NCBI GenBank assembly: GCA_965214725.1
Contig: OZ243973.1
Location: 801,938-865,937, forward strand
Length of the DNA stretch: 64,000 nt
Direction of reading: 5' to 3'
DNA from: Dehalococcoidia bacterium
GTDB lineage: Bacteria; Chloroflexota; Dehalococcoidia; UBA6926
The position numbers were made by a program, and so were the translations under genes. Shown here in pieces: positions 8,652 through 39,893 of this stretch; position 1 is the stretch's first letter, and the number at the start of each line of letters is the position of its first letter. The notes below the pieces were generated by a model that saw nothing but the letters and a program-made list of their open reading frames with translations, was not told the origin of the DNA and ran no database searches.

Positions 8652-9869
8652 TCAGATCACCCCTTCGGAGCGCAGGAGTGACACCTCCTTGCCCTCGATG
8701 CCGATCTCATTCAGGATCTCAACCGTGTGCTCCCCCAGCAGTGGGGCACGGCGACGGGCGGGCCGTTCCCCGTCATCAAAATGGATGCGGGAATTGAACC
8801 CGGGGTAGAGTTGCGGGCCGGTGGCCGGGTGGTCGATGGTCTGCCAGAATCCGCGCTCAGCAAAGTCCTCGTCCTTGATAAGGTTCTCGATGGTGTTCAT
8901 CGGGCCGCCGAGCACGCCGAATTCCATGCAGGCACGCTGCACCTCCTTCATGGTGCGCTCCAGCATCCACGGGACCAGGATCGCCTCCCACTCCTCCGCC
9001 GCCTCAGGCCGAGACCGCGCCGCCACGCTGTCCCACCCGGGCTGTGAGAGAATCTCCTCCTGCCCCACCATACGCGCCATATTCGGAAACATGGCGGGGC
9101 CGGCCGTCGTCATGAACATCCCGTCAATGCACGGGTAGACACCGCTGCCCAGCCCGAGGCTCGCGCCCGGTGAGACGCGCATCGGCACCCTGCCGTTGTA
9201 CTGGTAGCCGAGCAGGCGCTGCATGCGACCATCGATGGACTGCAGCGTCACCTCAAAGTAGCTGACATCAATGTTCTCACCCTGCCCGCGCAGTTCAGCG
9301 TTGGTCAGGCCGAGGGCGGTGGCGAGCGCGGCGGCATAGCCAACATGGAAACTCGCCATGCGCCCCGCCGTCTTGATCGGCTCAAGCTCCGGATCGCCCG
9401 ATCCCCACATGTTGCCGCCCATCGCATACATGGTGAGGTCGAGCCCGACCCAATCCCGGTAGGGGCCGGTCTTGCCGAAGTTGCTGATGGAGGTCATCAC
9501 GAGGCGGGGGTTGATGCGGCTGAGCTCGTCATAGCCGAGGCCGGCATCCGGCATCACATCCGGCGGAAAGTTCTCGATGAGGATATCCGCATCCTTGACG
9601 AGGTCTTTGATGATCTGCTTGCCCTTTTCCGTCTTGAAATCCAACGTCATGGAGCGCTTATTGGTGTTGAGAAAGAGGAAGAGACCGCTCTTCTCAAGCC
9701 CCGGCTCATCATGGTAGAAGGGGCCGATGCGGCGGGCAGGATCGCCACCGCCTGGCTGCTCAATCTTGATAACATCGGCCCCATAATCGCCCAGGATGCG
9801 CGTGGCATACGGGCCGGCAGTGTAATGCGTCAGGTCAATGACGCGGACACCCTCCAACGGCATGAACAT
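8652..9869 (-). CDS. Family III CoA-transferase (CaiB/BaiF family), second adjacent paralog
   Basis: LEGVRVIDLTHYTAGPYATRILGDYGADVIKIEQPGGGDPAR signature. Confidence 0.8.
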   Translation of the reverse strand: MFMPLEGVRVIDLTHYTAGPYATRILGDYGADVIKIEQPGGGDPARRIGPFYHDEPGLEKSGLFLFLNTNKRSMTLDFKTEKGKQIIKDLVKDADILIENFPPDVMPDAGLGYDELSRINPRLVMTSISNFGKTGPYRDWVGLDLTMYAMGGNMWGSGDPELEPIKTAGRMASFHVGYAAALATALGLTNAELRGQGENIDVSYFEVTLQSIDGRMQRLLGYQYNGRVPMRVSPGASLGLGSGVYPCIDGMFMTTAGPAMFPNMARMVGQEEILSQPGWDSVAARSRPEAAEEWEAILVPWMLERTMKEVQRACMEFGVLGGPMNTIENLIKDEDFAERGFWQTIDHPATGPQLYPGFNSRIHFDDGERPARRRAPLLGEHTVEILNEIGIEGKEVSLLRSEGVI

Positions 9870-13747: not shown

Positions 13748-13931
13748 TAGGACGATTTCCTATATCCAATTATCCAATGACTCGGATCTGCAGCTGCGCT
13801 CTGACTGGCGCACGCTCAGCGCGTTTGTGTGCCGATTCGTATAAACTAACGGGGACATTCCGGTGCGAGCGCCGCGCACAGTTCGCCTGTGTGTGAACGC
13901 GTGACTGCCGGGGACCGCGTCAGCATAATCT

Positions 13932-16149: not shown

Positions 16150-16269
16150 ACAGCGGAGAGACGGCGAGCATGCACTACTCGCCGTCAATAGAGACCCGAG
16201 ACCGATGTCGCGCCAGGATTGTGTACTATTCTATTAGGCATAGCCCGGACATTCGGAGGCGACACGGTT

Positions 16270-16959
16270 ATGATCTCAGCTGAGACTGAAGCGCCGCGAT
16301 GGATGGAACGTCTCAACCTTCCGGCATACCGGCCCGGTTTGGCGGCCAAGTGTGCTCAGATACCTACGCAGAGTGTGGCGTATTGGCGGCGCGGGGCGGC
16401 GGGCCGGCCAAGGCCGGTTCTTGCGAGCACCCGAACGGACACATTGCTCTCTTATCTGGAATTGATAGAGCTCGCATTTGTCGCCTCGATGCGTCAAATG
16501 GGAATCCCCTTTGCCAAGATTCGGCGCACCCGGGAATATGCCCAGAAGGAACTGGGGTCCGAGCACCCGTTCTCTGAATATGCCTGGAAGACCAACGGCA
16601 TGCATCTCTTGCTTGGTCTCCATGAGGTGGATCCGTCGCTGGATGTCGACCGCCTGATAATCGGAGATTCATACGGACAGTTGACCTGGCATGGACTGGT
16701 GGACGACCGCTTCACTGAGTTCGATTACGAGAATGACTTCGTTGTGAGGTGGCACCCTCGGGGTAAGACGAACAGCGTGATTATTGACCCTCGAATCAGA
16801 TTCGGCGCCCCGAATGCAGGGGGGGTTATCACAATATTTGTTAAGGGGCGATATGAGGCTGGAGAATCTCTGAGCGATATTGAAGATGACCTTGGGCTCA
16901 CTACGGAGCAGGTTAAGGACGCTCTAATCTTTGAGGGCGTAGAATCCCTTACGGCCTAA
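16270..16959 (+). CDS. DUF433-containing protein with an ~170-aa N-terminal HTH-containing extension (antitoxin-like partner of the downstream PIN-like gene)
   Basis: C-terminal …VIIDPRIRFGAPNAGGVITIFVKGRYEAGESLSDIEDDLGLTTEQVKDAL matches DUF433 (DPRIxxGKPxIxGTRIPV…). N-terminal LNLPAYRPGLAAKCAQIPTQSVAYWRR looks like a helix-turn-helix. Confidence 0.55.
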   Translation: MISAETEAPRWMERLNLPAYRPGLAAKCAQIPTQSVAYWRRGAAGRPRPVLASTRTDTLLSYLELIELAFVASMRQMGIPFAKIRRTREYAQKELGSEHPFSEYAWKTNGMHLLLGLHEVDPSLDVDRLIIGDSYGQLTWHGLVDDRFTEFDYENDFVVRWHPRGKTNSVIIDPRIRFGAPNAGGVITIFVKGRYEAGESLSDIEDDLGLTTEQVKDALIFEGVESLTA

Positions 16960-17367
16960 ATGTCGTATCGTTCCGACCGGCCTACGCTCTTCTTCGACCG
17001 TGATGTAGGAAAACGACTGCCGGAGGCGCTTTCCCGGCTACGGTTGCCCGTAGATATCGAGATGCACCGGAATTATTTCGCCCAAGGGTCCAGCGACAAT
17101 GAATGGCTTCCGGTAGTTGGCGCTCGGGGGTGGGTCGTCATTGGGCACGATCGCAGACACCACACCGAGGAAGGGGAACTGGCGTCCATTATCGACCACA
17201 ACGTTCGTGACTTCTACTTGTGGGGTGGCTCAGCGCCTACATGGGAAAAGGCCAGATGTTTCTTGAGGGCATTTGAGGCAATTCAGGAGGCAATCCTGGA
17301 AATTGACCCTCCTTTCATTTTCGACGTGCTCGAGGATGGCCGGTTGCGGCGCGTACCCATTTCCTGA
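16960..17367 (+). CDS. DUF5615-family PIN-like (Mut7-C-like) putative ribonuclease/toxin
   Basis: LFFDRDVGKRL…DNEWLPVVGARGWVVIGHDRR pattern of DUF5615. Its start codon abuts the stop of the DUF433 gene. Confidence 0.5.
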   Translation: MSYRSDRPTLFFDRDVGKRLPEALSRLRLPVDIEMHRNYFAQGSSDNEWLPVVGARGWVVIGHDRRHHTEEGELASIIDHNVRDFYLWGGSAPTWEKARCFLRAFEAIQEAILEIDPPFIFDVLEDGRLRRVPIS

Positions 17368-30338: not shown

Positions 30339-31448
30339 TCACTCGAAATCAGTGAGCCCGGCAATGATGTCCGGCGTCAGGCGGCGGACAACGTCCGCAA
30401 CAAGAATGACCGCATTCGCGAAATCGTCACGATGGATGACGCTGTTGTGGCTGTGCAGATAGCGCGTGGGAACAGCGATGTTGATGGATGGCGCGCCCGA
30501 TCCCGCTTTCTGCATCTCCGCGCCGTCCTCTCCATAGCCGCTCAACAAATTGAACTGGAGGGGCATCTCACGGTCGGCGGCCCCGTCCACAAACACATCA
30601 CGCAGGCGCAGGCTGGGCAGCATGGAGCTGTCATGCAGGAAAACCGTCGGCCCTTTCCCGAGCGCCTCCTGTGCCTCGTCCCGTGTGGTGCCCGGATAAT
30701 CACCCGCCACGCCCGATTCCACGTTGATGCCAACATCCGGCATGACGTGGAAGCTGCTGGTGTGCGCGCCACGCAGTCCGACTTCCTCTTGAACGGTGCC
30801 CACAAAGTAGATCGTCGCGGGCAGCGGATCCGTGGAGTCACGGAGTGCGCGGGCAACCTCAACGAGCGCGGCGAGCCCGGCTCGATCATCCCACGCCTTG
30901 CCGACATACAATTCCCCGCCCGCCATCTCCATAAAGGGGCTGTCCGGGGACACCGGATCGCCTGGGCGAATCCCGAGGCGCCCCTCCGCGTCCTCCCTAC
31001 TTGCTGCGCCAACGTCGATGAAGATCCCCTCCTTCTTGAAGATCTGTCCGCGAGCCTCCGGCTGCATCACATGCACCGTCTTGATTCCGGTCAGTCCCTT
31101 GATAGGGCCGTTGCGCGTCATCACAACCCACCGCTGGTTGATGAGCGCTTGATCCAGCCAGCCGCCGAGGGTCTGGATGGTCAGAAACCCCTCTGCCGTG
31201 ATCTGCCGCACCATGAGGCCCACCTCATCCATGTGGGCGGAGAGCATCACGCGGGGAACACCGTCATCCTCATGGCCAATCCGCGCAATGAGCGAGCCGA
31301 TGCCATCTGTCTCGATGGAGTCTGTCAGGGGAGTCAATTCCCGACGCAGGATGGCGCGGACAGCGCCCTCATGCCCTGTGGGCCCAAAGGCCTCAGACAG
31401 CTCTCGCAGCAGCCCACGCTGCCGCATGTAGGTCTCATTCGTCGTCAT
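30339..31448 (-). CDS. M42 family metallopeptidase (FrvX/YpdE-like glutamyl aminopeptidase)
   Basis: …AFGPTGHEGAVRAILRREL…MLSAHMDEVGLMVRQI… matches the M42 family. Confidence 0.75.
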   Translation of the reverse strand: MTTNETYMRQRGLLRELSEAFGPTGHEGAVRAILRRELTPLTDSIETDGIGSLIARIGHEDDGVPRVMLSAHMDEVGLMVRQITAEGFLTIQTLGGWLDQALINQRWVVMTRNGPIKGLTGIKTVHVMQPEARGQIFKKEGIFIDVGAASREDAEGRLGIRPGDPVSPDSPFMEMAGGELYVGKAWDDRAGLAALVEVARALRDSTDPLPATIYFVGTVQEEVGLRGAHTSSFHVMPDVGINVESGVAGDYPGTTRDEAQEALGKGPTVFLHDSSMLPSLRLRDVFVDGAADREMPLQFNLLSGYGEDGAEMQKAGSGAPSINIAVPTRYLHSHNSVIHRDDFANAVILVADVVRRLTPDIIAGLTDFE

Positions 31449-31770
31449 CAGCGTACAACCTCAACTCCCGATATTCGCCTGGTCGCATGGCATCGACAGC
31501 CGTGCCAATCTCAGCGACACGCAGTCTCAGCACGCGCCAATTCGGCGGATGCACAACCAATAGTGCGATGCCATAGCGTGGCAAATTCTGTTCATAGACG
31601 ATCCCCGCATCAGTGGAAATCAGTAAATCAAAGCCCTCTCGTTCTGCTGCTCGCAACAGGTCTCCATTGGCGATTCGTTCCCAGCCACGTTGCCGTGCAT
31701 ACACAACTGTATGGTGCGTCAGAAAACGGCGGAGGCTGTCGGGCACGCCATTGTCAAAGAGAATCCGCAT
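31435..31770 (-). CDS. DUF5615-family PIN-like protein (second copy in the window)
   Basis: MRILFDNGVPDSLRRFL…GDLLRAAEREGFDLLISTDAGIVYEQN matches the DUF5615 consensus (MKFLLDENLPRRLAELL…vlvTkDkDF). Confidence 0.6.
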   Translation of the reverse strand: MRILFDNGVPDSLRRFLTHHTVVYARQRGWERIANGDLLRAAEREGFDLLISTDAGIVYEQNLPRYGIALLVVHPPNWRVLRLRVAEIGTAVDAMRPGEYRELRLYADDDE

Positions 31771-32420
31771 TACCGGCCGGCGATGGCACCCGGGGAAGAA
31801 TCTCTGCGGCTTGATAGGTCAGTCTCCAAGAACGCCAAGATGGGCGCGACATCGTGCTCCTCAAGGCCGGACCCTTCGTAGAACCATTCAAGGAACTCGG
31901 ATAGTGGAAAATTGTCACGGAGCATGCTCAGGAGGTGCCCGACCGGCATTCTCGTATCGTAAATCACCAGTTGCCCGCTGACTTTGCCATGAAAACGATT
32001 CGTCTGGAGGCATGCGCTCCAATCAGTAATCCGATCCGTCGTCGGCTCCTGTCCCCACTGCTTTGTCCGATCGAAATAGGGGCCCTGCAACCATTCCGGC
32101 TTGAGTGTCTCGGTGTCTTGGATCGTGGTTGCCAGGTCATGCAACTCTCGATCGTAGATGTCGCGCGAGGGGCGGTACGCTTCCGCTGCGAGGAAGTCGA
32201 GGACCGTCCTGACATCCTGCTCACTGACCGTGTGCCCGCACCAATCGAGAAAGTCCTCAACTGTCCCATTCCGCCGCAGAACCGTGAACAGACCGGCTAC
32301 AGGAACATCCGTATCCCTAAAGACAAGCAGAGAGCCCCCTTCAGACGGGCCATCCGTGACGCAGGGGCATTCGCCCCAGAAGGTCAGCATATTCGTTGGG
32401 TCTGCCGCAACCGCCACCAT
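31770..32420 (-). CDS. Tandem-DUF433 protein (two DUF433 repeats), partner of the downstream DUF5615 gene
   Basis: Two repeats: …VFRDTDVPVAGLFTVLRRNGTVEDFLDWCGHTVSEQDVRTVLDFLAAE… and …VIYDTRMPVGHLLSMLRDNFPLSEFLEWFYEGSGLEEHDVAPILAFL…. The stop overlaps the start of the DUF5615 gene. Confidence 0.55.
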   Translation of the reverse strand: MVAVAADPTNMLTFWGECPCVTDGPSEGGSLLVFRDTDVPVAGLFTVLRRNGTVEDFLDWCGHTVSEQDVRTVLDFLAAEAYRPSRDIYDRELHDLATTIQDTETLKPEWLQGPYFDRTKQWGQEPTTDRITDWSACLQTNRFHGKVSGQLVIYDTRMPVGHLLSMLRDNFPLSEFLEWFYEGSGLEEHDVAPILAFLETDLSSRRDSSPGAIAGR

Positions 32421-34324: not shown

Positions 34325-34708
34325 TCAACTGCCATGACTGCCGTGATAGTGCAGTCGAGCCTCAACAAGTTGGCCATGAACAGGGTCCGCCGCCATCCCC
34401 AATCCCTCCAACGCATGTGCCCCAAGCAGTGGCTTGGCGCCGCTTGGACCGAACAGCACAATGGTCGTCGCCTCAAACCCGTTCACCTTAACGACGGCCT
34501 CGCCCATGTCCATGCTGATGACCCGACCGTCCGCTAATTCAAAGGGGCGCGACTGTGCAGGCGTGACACCGATGCTGGCGAGGAAATCGGATGGCAGCAC
34601 GCTATACGCGGCGCCGGTGTCCACCGTCGCCTCAACATCGCGCCCAGCATTGCCATCACGGCTCGCGAACTGAACCGTCGCATCAAACACACCCACAGAA
34701 TCTTGCAT
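34325..34708 (-). CDS. Retropepsin-like (clan AA) aspartyl protease, paralog 1
   Basis: VEATVDTGAAYSVLP catalytic DTG(A) motif plus the downstream GxxxLLGxxxL pattern. Confidence 0.65.
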   Translation of the reverse strand: MQDSVGVFDATVQFASRDGNAGRDVEATVDTGAAYSVLPSDFLASIGVTPAQSRPFELADGRVISMDMGEAVVKVNGFEATTIVLFGPSGAKPLLGAHALEGLGMAADPVHGQLVEARLHYHGSHGS

Positions 34709-34870
34709 TTTACTTCCCCATACAGACAAGTCGAATGGAATTCCGATTCTTCCCGTACCTCTTAATTCTAGCCCCCTTACAAATCTCAGACAGAACGGTG
34801 ACAATGGGTGCAGAGTTGGCCACCAGTTGGTAGCCAACTGGAAGCAATCAACGTAGGGGAGGGACGTTAC

Positions 34871-36586
34871 ATGGTCATGGAAGCTCGTAACAGGCGCCTG
34901 CCTGACTGGCTGATTCGTGTAAAGAGTGGCCAGTTAGCCCTTCCAAGATTTCAGCGATTCGAGAGCTGGGGCCACGGAGATATTGAAACTCTTCTAGACA
35001 CCGTACTCCGCAAGAGACCAATTGGGGCTGCGTTGGTACTTGCCATCGGCGACAAGGAGCCATTCGTAAGCCGCGCAATGGCAGGCGTACCGCAACCAAC
35101 TGAACGGACTACTGAGCACCTCTTGGACGGGCAACAGAGACTAACTGCGTTGTGGAAGGCACTAAACGACGGATACACGGACCGGACTTATTTTGCGGTG
35201 CTTCAGCCTGATGTTGACGATCCATCATTCGTCAAGAGCTACAGTCGATGGCACAGAAATGGACAACGGTACCCTCTTTGGGTTGACCGGCCAGCTGAAC
35301 AGTGGAATCGCGGTCTGGTGCCTTTGCGCCTTCTCAACCCGGACGCAGATTCCAGTGAAATAGGTGCTTGGTGTGATTCAGCTACAGATTCTCTAGAAGA
35401 CAGTCGTGACTTAGAGCGCAAACTGCAAGTACATCGAACCGCCTTGCAAGAGGCAAACCTCCCCTTCCTAGAATTACCGGTTGACACGCCTCCTGATGAA
35501 GCAATCGACGTCTTTATCAAGATGAATACTACTTCGGTCCGCCTCACTGCATTCGATATTGTAGTCGCTCAGATGGAAGCAGCCACAGGTCAATCGCTGC
35601 ACGAGCTTGAAGGATCGTTGCGTTCGGCAGTACGCGAGGCTGAATGGTATGTCGATATTTCGGACTTGATCCTCCGAGTAGCTGCCCTCAGGGAAAACCG
35701 ACCACCAACAGAGTCCTCCTTCATGCGCCTGGACATGCAACGGCTCTCGGACGAGTGGGAGGCCATTCAACAAGGGGTAGATGGTGCAATCAGATTTCTA
35801 AGGGAAGAGCACATCTATGATCGCGAGCGGTTGCCCACGGTCGCAGTGGTACCAGTTCTTGCGGCAATCTGGAGTCAAATGCCTCAGTCTCTTGATGCAC
35901 ATGGTGAAGCGCGTACGCTGCTCCGAACATATTTGTGGCGTGCATTCTTCACTGACAGGTATGATCGAGCGGCTGGCACGGCCGCCTTACAAGACTATCG
36001 TGGACTAAAGTCCCGGCTGGTTGACGCGGATGGTGATGCTCTAGCCCCAATATTCGAGGAGCATCGGTTCCCCGTAGCCGAAATCGAGCAAATAGAAAGG
36101 GCGCCTTGGCCTAGGCTCCGGAACACTTTGGCGCGCGCAATACTCGCAGTGTCGCTGCGGGCAGGTGGCAGGGATTTTGCCGACGATAGTCCAGTAAGTT
36201 CAGAATCTCTTTCCAGAAGGGAGTATCATCATCTTTTTCCCGAGGCTCTCTTGAGGAATGATGGCTTGCTTGAGGATTCAGAAATTCACTTGGCATTAAA
36301 CTGCGCTTTGGTCACTTGGAATACCAACCGTAATATCGCCGCCAAGGAACCTGTTGCCTACCTGCGGGAGCGTGTTGAACGGGCGCCACTAGGCGAGGAT
36401 CAGATTCGTAGCAGACTTGATTCCCACATCATCCCGTTCAGTTTCCTAAATGTTGGTGGTTATGCCAATATGGTCGATAAAGACGCTCGTGCAACGAAAA
36501 TCGGGACAGACTACAGCGATTTTGTACGAGCCCGCGCCGCGGCAATTCACGAGGTAGTAACTAGGCTGTGCAATGGCGAGGAGTAA
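34871..36586 (+). CDS. Second GmrSD-like DUF262/DUF1524 fusion protein (putative type IV restriction endonuclease)
   Basis: DGQQRLTALWKAL (DUF262). C-terminal …EYHHLFPEALL…HLALNCALVTWNTNRNIAAKEP (DUF1524 H-N-H-like). Low-GC gene. ATG at 34871 follows an AGGGGAGGGA RBS. Confidence 0.7.
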   Translation: MVMEARNRRLPDWLIRVKSGQLALPRFQRFESWGHGDIETLLDTVLRKRPIGAALVLAIGDKEPFVSRAMAGVPQPTERTTEHLLDGQQRLTALWKALNDGYTDRTYFAVLQPDVDDPSFVKSYSRWHRNGQRYPLWVDRPAEQWNRGLVPLRLLNPDADSSEIGAWCDSATDSLEDSRDLERKLQVHRTALQEANLPFLELPVDTPPDEAIDVFIKMNTTSVRLTAFDIVVAQMEAATGQSLHELEGSLRSAVREAEWYVDISDLILRVAALRENRPPTESSFMRLDMQRLSDEWEAIQQGVDGAIRFLREEHIYDRERLPTVAVVPVLAAIWSQMPQSLDAHGEARTLLRTYLWRAFFTDRYDRAAGTAALQDYRGLKSRLVDADGDALAPIFEEHRFPVAEIEQIERAPWPRLRNTLARAILAVSLRAGGRDFADDSPVSSESLSRREYHHLFPEALLRNDGLLEDSEIHLALNCALVTWNTNRNIAAKEPVAYLRERVERAPLGEDQIRSRLDSHIIPFSFLNVGGYANMVDKDARATKIGTDYSDFVRARAAAIHEVVTRLCNGEE

Positions 36587-36610
36587 GCGGGCCTGCCACG
36601 GTCCTCACCC

Positions 36611-36641
36611 GATGGATTCCCGCTTGCGCGGGAATGAGGGG
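36611..36641. repeat. REP1-family element
   Basis: gatggattcccgcttgcgcgggaatgaggggac. Confidence 0.8.
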
Positions 36642-36683
36642 ACGGGACACCGGAGCGGGGCGGGTTAGCGAGGAAGCAGGCCT

Positions 36684-36709
36684 GTCATTCTGAGCGCAGC
36701 GAAGAATCC
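36684..36709. repeat. REP2-family element, short form
   Basis: gtcattctgagcgcagcgaagaatcc. Confidence 0.8.
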
Positions 36710-36754
36710 AAGAGGGTGTTCTGGGGGCAGGGTGCTTCTGCAAGCGCCCCCGCC

Positions 36755-37108
36755 CTACAACGTCAATTCTGCTTGGATGAGCTCGCCTTTTAGGGGGTCC
36801 ACTTGCAGCGCCAACGCCTCCAGCGTGTAGGCGCCCAACAGCGGCCTCGACTCCTCTGGCCCGAAGATAACGTACGTTGACACGTTCACACCGTTATACG
36901 CGATCATCGCCTCCCCGATGGGCATGTCCAGTTTTCGGCCATCGGCGACGTTGAACGTTCGTGTCTGTGTTGGAGTGATGCCGAGTTCATCCAGCACGAC
37001 TGAGGGCAGGAGCGAGAAGAAGGCTCCGGTATCCACCAGGGCCTCAACATCGCGTGAGTGGGTTCCCTCTCGATTTGAAACCGTTATTCCTACCCGAAAC
37101 GCCCCCAT
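36755..37108 (-). CDS. Retropepsin-like (clan AA) aspartyl protease, paralog 2
   Basis: VEALVDTGAFFSLLP DTG motif; ~45% identical to the 34325..34708 product. Confidence 0.65.
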   Translation of the reverse strand: MGAFRVGITVSNREGTHSRDVEALVDTGAFFSLLPSVVLDELGITPTQTRTFNVADGRKLDMPIGEAMIAYNGVNVSTYVIFGPEESRPLLGAYTLEALALQVDPLKGELIQAELTL

Positions 37109-37186
37109 AGCACAATCGCTCCTTCCATTTCTGTAAGTCAGCCCGGTTGGCCAGTGTAATCGCGGATTAGTATACAGTCCTTCCCA

Positions 37187-37219
37187 GATGGATACCCGCT
37201 TTCGCGGGTATGAGGGGAG
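37187..37219. repeat. REP1-family element (tacccgc variant)
   Basis: gatggatacccgctttcgcgggtatgaggggagg. Confidence 0.8.
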
Positions 37220-37496
37220 GCGGGCATGAGGGAAGATGAGCGAGCGGGCACACCTACCGATTGTCACGGACAGGGTCAAAGCCTCTGAGCGGTTCAGCAC
37301 GCCTAGTCGCAATGCGCAGATAGTGGATTTTGGCCGTCCCCGCAATACCGGAGAGAGACGAGAATGAGGGCAGGCGGCGGCTCCTGTCCTTGACCGCGTC
37401 GGGCGGGACGCCTATCGTACTCGCAGATTGGGTGGCGTGGAGAATCAGAATCATAATGCCGCGCGGCGCGCCCTATCACCGGGGGAGAGGATCACC

Positions 37497-39893
37497 ATGA
37501 CCAATGGCACGCATGACACCGCGTTAGGACACCTGAGAGTCGTCGAATACGGCGAGATGCCGGCTGCGTATGCGGCTGGCTACCTGGCCGGACTCGGCGC
37601 GGACGTAATCAAAGTGGAGCCGCCGGGGGGTGATCCGAACCGTGCGCATGGGCCCTTTGCGGGCGGCATCGTGCACGCCGAGCGCGGCATCCCGTTCCTT
37701 AATGCCAACCTGAACCGGCGCAGCATCGTCCTGGATATCGATGATGCGGACGGGATGGCAACGCTGCAGCAGCTGGTGGAGCGGGCCGATATCTTTGTGG
37801 AATGCACGCCGCCCGGCCACCTCTCCGCACACGGCCTCACGGAGGAACGGCTCCAGGAAGTGAATCCCGGCCTCGTCACCGTTGCCATCACCCCGTTTGG
37901 ACAATCAGGGCCATACAGCCACTTCGCGGCGAATGAGGCCGTCGTCTCTGCCATGTCCGGCGTGATGATGAGCCAGGGGGATGATACGCGGGCGCCCGTT
38001 GTTCTGCCGTGCCAGATCGGCTCGCAGCTGGCGGCCGCCCACGGGGCCTATCTCGCCATCGCTGCCGTGCGGCACCGCCGCATAACGGGGCGGGGACAGC
38101 GCATCGATCTGTCATTGCAGGAGGCGCTCACATATACGGGCGTCAGCGCCATTGCGCGCTACAGCCAACGGAGTGAGATTGTCACGCGGCAGGGAAACAG
38201 CGGCGGTCCGGCGAACATCTATCAGACCAAGGACGGCAAGTACGTCCAGATCGCCATCTTTATGACGGGCCATTGGCGCATTCTGGCCCGCTCCTGGATG
38301 GAGGATGCCGTCCTCTCCGGCGATGACTGGGATTCCTCCCAATTCCGCACCGATAACGAGGACCTCGCGCAGGTCTTGATTCAATCATTCGTTGAACAGT
38401 TCGACCGCGATGAGTTCGTGGAGGAGGCGCAGAAGCGCGGCATCGCCGTCTGCCCCGTCAATACCTTTGAAGACTTTGTGACGGATGAGCATATGCGGCA
38501 GCGCGGCTGGTTCCAACGGGTGACGCACCCGGTGGTGGGTGAGTATGAAACACCGGGCCAGCCGTTCATCATGTCAGAGACACCATGGATACAGCCTCGC
38601 CCCGCCCCACTCCTTGACCAGCATCGCGATGAGGTTCTGAGCGAGATAGCGGCCATTCCGCCGCGTCGTGACGACGCCCCCGCCCCAACCAATGGACGCG
38701 CGCCTGATGCGCCGCTCCTTGAGGGCATCCGCGTCGCGGACATCACACGGGCATTTGCGGGGCCCATCGGCACCATGTTCCTCGGGTTCTATGGCGCTGA
38801 AGTCATCAAGGTTGAGTCAGAGAGCCTTGAGGCGAATCGTGAGCCGTCACGCCCACTCTTCCCGGACATGAACCGCGCAAAGCTGAGCTGCACCATTGAC
38901 CTGCGATCAGACGACGGCAAAGACCTGTTCCGTGATCTTGCCCGCACGAGTGACGTCGTTGTCGATAATTTCAGCGCAACCGTCATGAAACGGCTCGGTC
39001 TCGGCTATGAGGATCTGTCAGCCATCAATCCGGGCATCATCCAGATTGGGATGCCTGGCATGGGGACCACCGGCCCGCTCAATAACTGGGTCACATACGG
39101 CAACAACCTGCAAGCCATCACGGGGCTGTCCCTCCTGTGGGGGCACCCGGACTCCCCAATGCAGAGCCACGCAAAGGGAGTGATTCCGGATTACGTGGGG
39201 GCCGCATTCGTCGCGCTCTCCACACTCGCCGCGCTGGAATACCGGGACAGGACGGGACGCGGACAGCATATCGAGATCGCGCAGGTGGACGGACAAGGGC
39301 AGATGATGGGGACGGCCATCCTCGATTACACCATCAACGGAACCGTCTGGGGCAGCGTGGGGTACGATGAGCCGATAGCCGCTCACTATGCGCCATTCGG
39401 CGCGTATGCCTGCCGCTACCCGGACACCTGGATTGTCATCGCGTGTGAGACGGACGATCAGTGGCGCGCCCTCTCAACGGCCATGGGCGCCCCTCATTGG
39501 GCGGATGACCCTCGCTTTGCCGATGTGGCGGGCCGGCGCGCCAATCGGGACGAGATCGATCATGAGATTGCCGAGTGGACGCAGGCCTTCACGACACATC
39601 AGCTGCTTCACATGCTGCAGCGTGCCGGCGTGCCGGCGGGCGTCGCCATGAACGGAGAAGACCTCTACAACGATCCGCACCTGCGTGAACGTGGGCATGT
39701 GGTGCGAGCCACCCACTCGCCATGGGGACTGCTGTCTCACCAGGGGCTGCCGGGCATCCCGTCACTCTCCACGGCAAGCGCTGCGCGCCCCGCGCCATGG
39801 ATCGGCGCCGATAATGAGTATGTCTTCAAATCAGTGCTGGGCATGGATGATGCGCGCATCGCGGACGGCGTCGCGCGTGGCGTGCTAAGGTGA
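37497..39893 (+). CDS. Tandem-domain (fused) family III CoA-transferase, ~800 aa, with two complete CaiB/BaiF modules
   Basis: Module 1: LRVVEYGEMPAAYAAGYLAGLGADVIKVEPPGGDPNR. Module 2: LEGIRVADITRAFAGPIGTMFLGFYGAEVIKVESE. Each has its own conserved Asp-containing core. The ATG at 37497 follows a GGGGGAGAGG RBS. Confidence 0.75.
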   Translation: MTNGTHDTALGHLRVVEYGEMPAAYAAGYLAGLGADVIKVEPPGGDPNRAHGPFAGGIVHAERGIPFLNANLNRRSIVLDIDDADGMATLQQLVERADIFVECTPPGHLSAHGLTEERLQEVNPGLVTVAITPFGQSGPYSHFAANEAVVSAMSGVMMSQGDDTRAPVVLPCQIGSQLAAAHGAYLAIAAVRHRRITGRGQRIDLSLQEALTYTGVSAIARYSQRSEIVTRQGNSGGPANIYQTKDGKYVQIAIFMTGHWRILARSWMEDAVLSGDDWDSSQFRTDNEDLAQVLIQSFVEQFDRDEFVEEAQKRGIAVCPVNTFEDFVTDEHMRQRGWFQRVTHPVVGEYETPGQPFIMSETPWIQPRPAPLLDQHRDEVLSEIAAIPPRRDDAPAPTNGRAPDAPLLEGIRVADITRAFAGPIGTMFLGFYGAEVIKVESESLEANREPSRPLFPDMNRAKLSCTIDLRSDDGKDLFRDLARTSDVVVDNFSATVMKRLGLGYEDLSAINPGIIQIGMPGMGTTGPLNNWVTYGNNLQAITGLSLLWGHPDSPMQSHAKGVIPDYVGAAFVALSTLAALEYRDRTGRGQHIEIAQVDGQGQMMGTAILDYTINGTVWGSVGYDEPIAAHYAPFGAYACRYPDTWIVIACETDDQWRALSTAMGAPHWADDPRFADVAGRRANRDEIDHEIAEWTQAFTTHQLLHMLQRAGVPAGVAMNGEDLYNDPHLRERGHVVRATHSPWGLLSHQGLPGIPSLSTASAARPAPWIGADNEYVFKSVLGMDDARIADGVARGVLR

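Follow-up and report, generated by a model that had tools for sequence, protein, structure and literature searches.

The window analysed here, a stretch of 64,000 nucleotides from a Dehalococcoidia bacterium, contains two small operons in which a gene for a DUF433 protein is directly followed by a gene for a putative nuclease. The question they raise is whether these operons encode toxin-antitoxin (TA) systems and, if so, whether they belong to families already described or depart from them. An initial annotation had proposed two DUF433-type TA-like modules at these positions, and our follow-up supports that proposal. All four open reading frames and both gene junctions are real. We consider it probable that these are two independent type II TA operons of the chromosome, one a VapBC45 homologue (module 1) and the other a pair of the DUF433/DUF5615 (COG4634) type (module 2). 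In both, the antitoxin gene would come first and the toxin gene second, with their translation predicted to be coupled. Module 1 is a further member of the known VapBC45 family, and module 2 is a modest architectural variant.

Module 1 is located on the plus strand. Its first gene (16270-16959) encodes a VapB45/Rv2018-like protein of 229 aa with an HTH_66 region (aa ~24-85; 16339-16524), a middle region and a C-terminal DUF433 region (aa ~172-221; 16783-16932). The second (16960-17367) encodes a VapC45/Rv2019-like PIN_10 protein of 135 aa. A GGAGG motif at 16256-16260 lies 9 nt 5' of the antitoxin ATG, which is also the start chosen by an independent gene caller in the sister contig L001. The antitoxin stop abuts the toxin start as TAA-ATG (16959/16960; span 16957-16962), and the same abutting junction, together with an identical antitoxin/toxin architecture, is present in the relatives L013, L014 and L016. 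The initial annotation had thus described the junction correctly, but its assignment of the downstream gene to DUF5615 did not stand. The toxin scores 53.7 bits with Pfam PIN_10 (PF18478; cutoff 26.2), the match covering positions 1-82 of the 84 in the profile, and PF18478 is present in all 16 of its homologues.

The closest characterised counterpart of this toxin is Rv2019. M. tuberculosis itself was absent among the loci found with the Rv2018 query in our genome collection, and we used the M. gastri orthologues as a proxy for Rv2018/Rv2019, the M. gastri antitoxin being 92% identical to Rv2018. The whole length of the module 1 toxin can be aligned with the M. gastri orthologue of Rv2019, whose gene lies downstream of that antitoxin gene (27% identity over 131 aa, E=1e-9), and hhalign relates the two with a probability of 96.7% (E=4.6e-10). 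Residues D13, D15, D46, D64 and E73 are invariant and E34 is near-invariant in the family, the invariance of the acidic residues extending across 14 members. Four of these positions, D13, E34, D46 and D64, align with D17, E41, D53 and D71 of Rv2019. An E41K mutant of Rv2019 has been analysed and supports metal-ion dependence; D98, the other position that Kim et al. mutated (PMC5175181), aligns with the non-conserved S91 of the module 1 toxin, the conserved acidic residue closest to it being E96. The dN/dS of the toxin gene is ~0.22 in comparison with L013. The module 1 toxin had no match in the PDB, whether searched by sequence or by profile.

The antitoxin of module 1 can likewise be traced to VapB45. 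A phmmer search aligns its residues 14-219 with residues 12-236 of Rv2018/VapB45 (PDB 5AF3_A; E=3.6e-10). The 229-aa protein itself reaches a weak 14.1 bits with HTH_66, below the Pfam cutoff, and 18.9 bits with DUF433, against a gathering cutoff of 23.6. These two weak regions nevertheless align with the corresponding regions of 5AF3/Rv2018; the relatives L013, L014 and L016 score up to 28.4 bits with HTH_66 and up to 25.5 bits with DUF433, and the M. gastri orthologue of Rv2018 scores 104 bits and 32 bits, respectively. The DUF433 assignment holds only by way of relatives. At family level, the suggestion in the initial annotation that the N-terminal extension contains an HTH is supported, the domain being the MerR-like HTH_66. 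The same long antitoxin accompanies every relative of the module 1 toxin that was examined.

An antitoxin extended by an HTH domain had been listed among the unusual variants of this locus. It is not unusual, because a gene for an HTH+DUF433 antitoxin with a PIN_10 gene immediately after it is what members of the VapBC45 family normally have. Makarova 2009 (PMC2701414) and Matelska 2017 (PMC5499597) both name this arrangement explicitly, a crystal structure is available (5AF3), and the system has been examined experimentally (Kim 2016; PMC5175181). Module 1 shares with VapBC45 (Rv2018, PDB 5AF3; Rv2019) its gene order, tight coupling and PIN_10 toxin, as well as an antitoxin that aligns over its full length through the HTH_66, middle and DUF433 regions. 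It differs in being only ~25-27% identical, in having an abutting TAA-ATG junction where M. gastri has an 11-nt overlap, and in the non-acidic residue aligned with D98 of Rv2019. It also derives from an uncultured organism, the nearest named relative of its toxin being a Dehalococcoidia MAG.

In the mycobacterial system, Rv2019 is a toxic ribonuclease that cleaves rRNA and mRNA, and Rv2018 is its antidote (Kim 2016; PMC5175181). By analogy, the module 1 toxin would be a metal-dependent ribonuclease, and the 229-aa antitoxin, with its MerR-like HTH_66, its middle region and its predicted C-terminal DUF433 winged-helix domain, would keep it inactive; the toxicity, neutralisation and RNase activity ascribed to the proteins of the window are all carried over from Rv2019/Rv2018. 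A second source of analogy is VapBC10 of Synechocystis (ssr2962/slr1767), in which a DUF433 antitoxin neutralises a toxin of the PIN type whose gene lies downstream in the same operon. VapB10, a small, single-domain protein, is an experimentally validated DUF433 antitoxin that binds its promoter and is degraded by ClpXP (PMC3834315). We take it as our model for these two properties, DNA binding and proteolytic turnover, which may extend to the antitoxins of the window. Because VapB10 activates rather than represses its own promoter (PMC3834315), the direction of regulation should not be assumed for either module. Promoter and terminator scans performed no better than on shuffled sequence, and a convincing promoter or operator emerged 5' of neither module. 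A 9-nt inverted repeat 5' of module 1, considered as a candidate operator, was rejected for its lack of conservation in L013.

Module 2 is encoded on the minus strand. Its antitoxin gene (31770-32420) specifies a protein of 216 aa with two DUF433 domains, as the initial annotation had recognised. The first (aa 10-91; 32148-32393) and the second (aa 128-208; 31797-32039) match a custom DUF433 HMM, built from single-domain relatives, with i-E values of 7.4e-20 and 4.3e-18, respectively. The two halves also align with each other as an internal repeat (34% identity over 71 aa, E=2e-10), and the Pfam DUF433 model itself places aa 146-197, within the second domain, above its cutoff (38.0 bits versus 23.6). 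Between the domains lies a poorly conserved linker (aa 92-127; 32040-32147) that is modelled with a pLDDT of 43-58, as compared with ~90 for domain 1. Values of pN are 0.175 and 0.162 for the first and second domains, or 0.16-0.18 overall, versus 0.47 for the linker, the pS of domain 1 (0.80) being saturated. Both domains are under purifying selection, while the linker is fast-evolving.

An AF2 model of the tandem antitoxin (pTM 0.70, from a shallow alignment) contains two units, each composed of a beta-hairpin and three helices and consistent with a winged-helix/3-helical-bundle fold. Its best Foldseek match is Ava_0674 (PDB 2GA1), a chain with a single DUF433 domain; this match is not significant (probability 0.77, E=0.25; TM 0.47, normalised to the target). 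From the domain count and this model we infer that the tandem antitoxin may form a single-chain pseudo-dimer, its two predicted winged-helix units being available for binding of the toxin, the operator or both.

The toxin gene of module 2 (31435-31770, also on the minus strand) overlaps the antitoxin gene by 1 nt, with TAATG at 31770, and encodes a divergent DUF5615/COG4634-type protein of 111 aa. The overlap had been described correctly in the initial annotation, and the DUF5615 label can be kept in a qualified form. Against Pfam DUF5615 (PF18480) the protein scores 18.3 bits, under the gathering cutoff of 23.8. We found 79 homologues, and among 51 members of the family, 35 match DUF5615 at E<=0.01, with a best value of 9.6e-7. 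Furthermore, the toxin is 47% identical to a protein of L003 with a precomputed PF18480 match and 46% identical to a protein of L006 that scores 35.4 bits against the same model. The assignment to DUF5615 therefore holds only through relatives. All 51 sequences of the family have D6 and D54, and conservation of D37 and E43 is at least 90%, a set of acidic residues that appears compatible with a PIN-type active site. The gene is under purifying selection, with a dN/dS of ~0.12.

The AF2 model of the module 2 toxin is a confident one, with an alpha/beta fold (pLDDT 84.9). A Foldseek search of the PDB with this model gave no match at E<=0.001, returning only generic flavodoxin/Rossmann-like structures with TM<0.45, and PDB sequence and profile searches found nothing. 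The two toxins of the window share no pairwise similarity, and profile-profile comparison with hhalign gives a probability of 3%. The PIN_10 HMM is matched weakly by 9 of the 51 members of the module 2 toxin family. The DUF5615-type group is listed in the classification of Matelska 2017 as one without a solved structure (PMC5499597), and the literature we searched contained no experimental toxicity test of a DUF5615/COG4634 protein. A scan of all four proteins against NCBIfam returned nothing meaningful. On the family-level sequence evidence and the published classification, the module 2 toxin is best described as a putative nuclease of a reduced, PIN-like type.

Pairs of DUF433 and COG4634 genes are already on record as TA systems (PMC4226512). 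In the COG2442-COG4634/DUF5615 pairs of A. ferrooxidans ICEAfe1 (AFE_1367/1368) and R. etli pRet42a (RHE_PA00164/00163), for example, as in module 2, the DUF433 gene lies directly 5' of, and overlaps, a DUF5615-type gene of ~105-110 aa. Module 2 departs from them in that its antitoxin has two DUF433 domains and a ~40-aa linker instead of a single domain of 60-100 aa, and its toxin belongs to a divergent subfamily, as judged by the fraction reaching E<=0.01 with PF18480. The toxin family was paired with DUF433 genes in every neighbourhood examined, and in a metagenome sample 40 of the 70 loci that could be scored had a DUF433 partner. The order of antitoxin then toxin, adjacent or overlapping, recurs in L004-L012 and L032.

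The tandem form, in contrast to the HTH-extended one, deserves to be called unusual: it accounts for 1 of 79 DUF433 genes in a metagenome sample. Orthologues with the same architecture occur in L002 (98%) and in L003 and L005 (63%), and three samples have between them yielded at least four contigs with the two-domain ORF (the window, L002, L003 and L004/L005). L032, from a distant lineage, carries an independent tandem-DUF433 protein together with a member of the same toxin family, and its antitoxin aligns colinearly with that of module 2. Scanning a metagenome with the P0023/P0026 tandem alignment gave no matches. The tandem DUF433 antitoxin is a rare but recurrent subtype and not a one-off.

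Granted two TA operons, their biological role may be sought elsewhere than in addiction or persistence. The modules could serve mainly as defence cassettes, against phage by abortive infection or against mobile elements, an idea that we regard as doubtful yet worth keeping in mind. It concerns role and not mechanism, and it is compatible with the TA explanation. A single gene, thrS, separates module 2 from a GmrSD-type restriction gene, the segment varies between sister strains, and in relatives the site also harbours additional DUF433-DUF5615 pairs and a further PIN pair. A DUF433-PIN_10 pair has also been described inside a defence island with GmrSD (Matelska 2017; PMC5499597), and a strain-variable indel of an NYN gene is located close to module 1. 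Against this, none of the four proteins is recognised by a PADLOC defence-system model, and the module 1 relatives in L014 and L016 sit among housekeeping genes for glycine cleavage and ABC transporters.

The tandem antitoxin might also be a functionally distinct pseudo-dimer whose diverged domains have separate jobs, one binding the operator and the other the toxin, or each neutralising a different DUF5615 paralogue. This strikes us as unlikely. If it were true, the antitoxin:toxin stoichiometry would be 1:2, unlike that of single-domain DUF433 systems. The resemblance of the N-terminal domain to the antitoxin of the first of the two pairs found at this site in relatives, its closest match, could also have permitted loss of that first pair in the window genome.

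Slightly less likely still, in our estimation, is that one or both modules have been domesticated or have decayed, leaving a non-toxic toxin and a DUF433 protein acting only as a transcription factor. The sub-threshold Pfam score of the module 2 toxin and its lack of a structural match would fit such a history; the activator VapB10 illustrates that DUF433 proteins can regulate transcription (PMC3834315), and Jatrophihabitans apparently has a decayed Rv2018-like locus. Decay is hard to reconcile, however, with the invariance of catalytic-type acidic residues in both toxin families, with toxin dN/dS values of 0.12-0.22, or with tight antitoxin coupling in all relatives examined.

The initial annotation had also pointed to an AlkZ-like gene directly downstream of module 1. 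The gene is real (17368/17383-18573, plus strand; Pfam match 2.7e-61) and begins 16 nt past the stop codon of the toxin gene, in the same orientation, an arrangement kept in L001 and L013. A partnership between module 1 and this DNA glycosylase, for instance as a regulator/nuclease set in DNA repair, nevertheless seems very improbable. Because the window as a whole is syntenic with both L001 and L013, including the flanking ATP-grasp/CoA-ligase and MeaB genes, the adjacency was inherited and not selected. It survives only in the closest syntenic genome and has gone from relatives further away: the pair of L014 and L016 sits between ABC-transporter/Uma2 genes and gcvT without AlkZ, and in mycobacteria no AlkZ gene adjoins the Rv2018-Rv2019-type pair. 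It therefore carries no functional implication, and we rejected a functional link on this neighbourhood evidence (L013, L014 and L016).

Least credible of all is that the tandem ORF is an artefact, whether an assembly or frameshift fusion or a recent fusion by loss of an intervening toxin gene: in relatives this site is indeed occupied by two DUF433-toxin pairs in a row, and the N-terminal domain is closest (47%) to the antitoxin of the first, but the ORF recurs across contigs and samples, L005 retains the first pair alongside it, both domains are under purifying selection, the linker contains no toxin-like remnant in any frame, and the distant tandem homologue is colinear with it. As to how the tandem form arose, the lack of a remnant in the linker speaks neither for nor against deletion of a toxin gene between the two domains.

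Two independent TA operons thus remain our preferred reading. The locus has little importance beyond annotation. For annotators it should help to know that the first toxin belongs to PIN_10 and not to DUF5615, and that two of the four Pfam assignments, DUF433 in the 229-aa protein and DUF5615 in the 111-aa protein, fall below threshold. The tandem antitoxin would be a handy natural construct for studying DNA binding by DUF433 and neutralisation of DUF5615 toxins, since no structure has been solved for the DUF433-DUF5615 complex or for the DUF5615 fold. Module 1 carries the validated VapBC45 family beyond the actinobacteria into an uncultured, probably Chloroflexota-like lineage, with an HTH_66-DUF433 antitoxin as the normal partner of the family's toxin, and module 2 provides a rare, recurrent and selectively maintained two-domain DUF433 antitoxin.

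The best-supported reading of the two modules is that they would form two independent type II toxin-antitoxin (TA) operons, and the initial annotation was right to regard them as TA-like, given the homology to VapBC45 and the DUF433-DUF5615 pairing. Its observations were largely correct, with one family assignment wrong, and the coordinates and junctions of all four ORFs it described were confirmed. On the forward strand, a 229-aa antitoxin ORF (16270-16959), with GGAGG 9 nt upstream of its ATG and the same start chosen by an independent gene caller in the sister contig L001 (97% identical), meets a 135-aa toxin ORF (16960-17367) at a TAA-ATG junction. On the reverse strand, a 216-aa tandem-DUF433 antitoxin ORF (32420-31770) shares one base with a 111-aa toxin ORF (31770-31435; TAATG). 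Family HMMs built here found no further DUF433, PIN_10 or DUF5615-like ORFs in the whole 64-kb window. The wrong assignment concerns the 135-aa toxin, which had been called DUF5615 and which Pfam places in PIN_10 (PF18478; 53.7 bits versus a cutoff of 26.2). Pfam also matches DUF433 to the C-terminal copy in the 216-aa antitoxin (38.0 bits, cutoff 23.6) and, below the cutoff, to the 229-aa antitoxin (18.9 bits), and gives the 111-aa toxin a DUF5615 score of 18.3 bits, under the cutoff of 23.8. The two toxins have no pairwise similarity, and their family profiles show no detectable relation (hhalign probability 3%). The PIN_10 model is weakly matched by 9 of 51 module 2 toxin-family members, and COG4634 and PIN_10 have both been grouped as "Mut7-C-like" reduced PIN folds (Matelska et al. 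2017, PMC5499597).

With module 1, a known and experimentally characterised family gains a new member. Nearly the full length of its antitoxin (aa 14-219) aligns with chain A of PDB 5AF3 (E=3.6e-10), which was deposited as "VAPBC49" and corresponds to VapB45, or Rv2018, according to Matelska et al. (PMC5499597). Mycobacterial loci were fetched with the 5AF3 sequence as query, and that of M. gastri encodes an antitoxin 92% identical to Rv2018, with Pfam matches to HTH_66 (104 bits) and DUF433 (32 bits), followed with an 11-nt overlap by a 138-aa PIN_10 ORF (59 bits). Over 131 residues, the module 1 toxin shares 27% identity with this Rv2019 orthologue (E=1e-9; hhalign probability 96.7%), and its D13, E34, D46 and D64, invariant or nearly so among 14 family members, align with Rv2019 D17, E41, D53 and D71. 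E41 is one of the two residues whose mutation supported metal-ion dependence (Kim et al., PMC5175181), whereas the other, D98, corresponds to a non-conserved serine in the module 1 toxin. Rv2019 arrests the growth of E. coli, impairs colony formation by M. smegmatis and is neutralised by Rv2018; its cleavage of rRNA and mRNA is sensitive to EDTA (Kim et al. 2016, PMC5175181).

The HTH-extended antitoxin of module 1 had been proposed as an unusual variant, a view that does not hold. The DNA itself is that of an uncultured organism, from an ENA metagenome assembly with contigs of 0.7-1.9 Mb. The nearest named relative of the toxin comes from a Dehalococcoidia MAG, and every one of the toxin relatives (45-61% identity) is preceded by a 218-234-aa gene ending exactly 1 base before the toxin ATG, with scores of up to 28.4 bits for HTH_66 and 25.5 bits for DUF433. 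Because all examined toxin relatives have this long upstream gene, the HTH-extended DUF433 antitoxin is the normal partner of PIN_10 toxins. The literature already names it: the wHTH-COG2442 fusion of Rv2018 and its PIN partner Rv2019 were described explicitly by Makarova et al. 2009 (PMC2701414), and "DUF433-PIN_10" was listed as a TA system by Matelska et al. 2017 (PMC5499597). The last residues of the module 1 antitoxin are ...SLTA (stop codon 16957-16959), and those of its relatives L014 and L016 are ...PQAA; both are similar to the Ala-Ala ClpX degron described at the C-terminus of VapB45 (PMC8165232). At a Jatrophihabitans lederbergiae locus (L026 2474-3185), the Rv2018 orthologue is seemingly frameshifted, with a 201-aa ORF containing HTH_66 only, a tblastn match running on past it and no PIN_10 ORF of at least 90 aa following; a VapBC45-type module has probably decayed here.

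The position of module 1 directly upstream of an AlkZ-like gene (Pfam 2.7e-61), also pointed out initially, is real and is incidental. Only L001 and the related locus L013 have AlkZ after the pair, and both keep the whole local synteny of the window, with ATP-grasp/CoA-ligase genes upstream and MeaB downstream. The same pair lies between ABC-transporter/Uma2 genes and a glycine-cleavage operon in L014 and L016, and no AlkZ adjoins it in M. gastri. A perfect 9-nt inverted repeat, GACGGCGAG-N9-CTCGCCGTC (16160-16186), lies in the gap separating module 1 from the stop codon of the CoA-ligase-like gene that precedes it. The repeat carries a single mismatch in L001, is unrecognisable in L013 and could be the terminator stem of that gene rather than an operator. 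No operator or promoter was identified with confidence upstream of the operons.

The two DUF433 repeats reported for the module 2 antitoxin are likewise genuine. Aligned with each other, its halves share 34% of their residues across 71 aa (E=2e-10). When 1.84 billion representatives were searched exhaustively with HMMER, it had 80 matches, mostly single-domain proteins of 73-130 aa covering either aa ~10-85 or ~128-204, and an HMM built from these finds the two domains at i-E values of 7e-20 and 4e-18. An AF2 model (pLDDT 71, pTM 0.70, shallow alignment) contains two confident units of a beta-hairpin and three helices joined by a low-confidence linker; the PDB entry closest to the model, the DUF433 structure 2GA1, is not a significant match. 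Synonymous sites are saturated in the comparison with the 63% identical orthologue in the related locus L005; non-synonymous divergence is 0.175 for the first domain, 0.162 for the second and 0.47 for the linker. Both DUF433 copies are therefore maintained by selection.

The tandem form did prove unusual, as the initial annotation had it, yet it is recurrent. An unrelated tandem protein used as query brought up 80 metagenome loci, in which 78 of the 79 DUF433 ORFs are single-domain, and a DUF5615-like ORF directly follows 40 of 70 single-domain ORFs once those cut by contig ends are left out. The sole tandem case (L032, 174-183 aa) is colinear with the window antitoxin over both domains (30% identity, E=6e-20) and precedes an overlapping toxin 41% identical to that of module 2. 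With the further tandem representatives P0022, P0023, P0026 and P0062, the tandem-DUF433 form is thus rare but recurrent and tied to the same toxin family. The phrases "tandem DUF433" and "DUF433 domains" are absent from the searched literature mentioning DUF433. DUF433 was also met at the C-terminus of two other fusions: P0024 (298 aa), which carries a Type I R-M specificity (Methylase_S) domain, and a 557-aa ORF (L028 528-2201) that has a DUF5615-like ORF after it.

The interval between thrS and the M42 peptidase gene holds the tandem antitoxin and toxin alone in the window and its sister L002, one single-domain pair followed by a 242-aa tandem antitoxin and toxin in L005, and two consecutive single-domain pairs in the related locus L006 (97 aa + 105 aa; 123 aa + 110 aa). 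The extra pair (97-aa DUF433, 104-105-aa DUF5615; L005 1473-2114, L006 1919-2565) sits between thrS and the module 2 orthologue, and since it is missing from the window and L002, lineages differ in how many TA pairs they carry here. The window toxin is 72% and 54% identical to the second-pair toxins of L005 and L006, versus 42-47% to the first-pair toxins; it is the orthologue of the second-pair toxin, so that a single toxin lineage has either a single-domain or a tandem partner. More distant toxin homologues have ordinary 59-88-aa DUF433 genes as partners. One possible origin of the tandem form is a deletion that fused two antitoxins. The N-terminal DUF433 domain of the window antitoxin is closest (47%) to the first-pair antitoxin, and because the linker contains no toxin remnant, such an origin is neither supported nor excluded.

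The module 2 toxin has 79 homologues, two of them labelled "predicted nuclease of predicted toxin-antitoxin system" (JGI). DUF5615 is matched at E<=0.01 by 35 of 51 scanned family members, and the toxin is 47% identical to a protein of the related locus L003 with a precomputed PF18480 match. D6 and D54 are invariant in the family, at least 90% of its sequences retain D37 and E43, and dN/dS is ~0.12. The AF2 model is confident (pLDDT 84.9, pTM 0.79), and Foldseek found no significant structural neighbour for it among 350k PDB chains, in agreement with the statement that no structure had been solved for the COG4634-type group as of 2017 (Matelska et al., PMC5499597). The PIN-like fold of this toxin is thus putative, and the widespread DUF5615-type family seems to lack an experimental structure for its fold.

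Strain-variable DNA is found near each of the two modules. For module 1 it is a ~650-nt indel some 2.5 kb upstream: L001 has a 207-aa NYN-domain (PIN-like) gene (2209-2832) between its sortase and ATP-grasp genes, which the window lacks at ~13761-13809. Near module 2, a variable segment containing GmrSD lies beyond thrS. Such surroundings fit TA cassettes as mobile, possibly defence-associated elements; PADLOC models matched neither module. Colinearity between the window and L002 breaks at ~34289, beyond which the window has a GmrSD_N (type IV restriction-like) gene (34808-36586, forward strand) flanked by reverse-strand retropepsin-like aspartyl-protease ORFs (34325-34837 and 36755-37345), and in L002 the place is taken by a PSK_trans_fac + PIN TA pair plus a 632-aa GmrSD_N; 34325-37345 looks like a strain-variable, defence-island-like segment adjoining thrS and module 2. 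An ORF of 821 aa containing two stretches of CoA-transferase family III follows at 37428-39893, and a second, single-copy CoA_transf_3 gene lies at 8652-9869.

If these are indeed two independent TA operons, the module 1 toxin would be a metal-dependent RNase by homology with Rv2019, the module 2 toxin a putative nuclease of related reduced-PIN type, and both antitoxins would bind and inactivate their own toxins. By analogy, their winged-helix domains would probably let them bind their own promoters as well, and ClpXP would probably turn them over. The DUF433 antitoxin VapB10 has been found to bind its promoter, activating rather than repressing it, and to be turned over by ClpXP (PMC3834315); the same turnover has been suggested for VapB45 (PMC8165232). 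Architecturally, module 2 departs only modestly, through its doubled antitoxin domain, from a catalogued family whose TA function is predicted. The tandem antitoxin may act as a single-chain pseudo-dimer.
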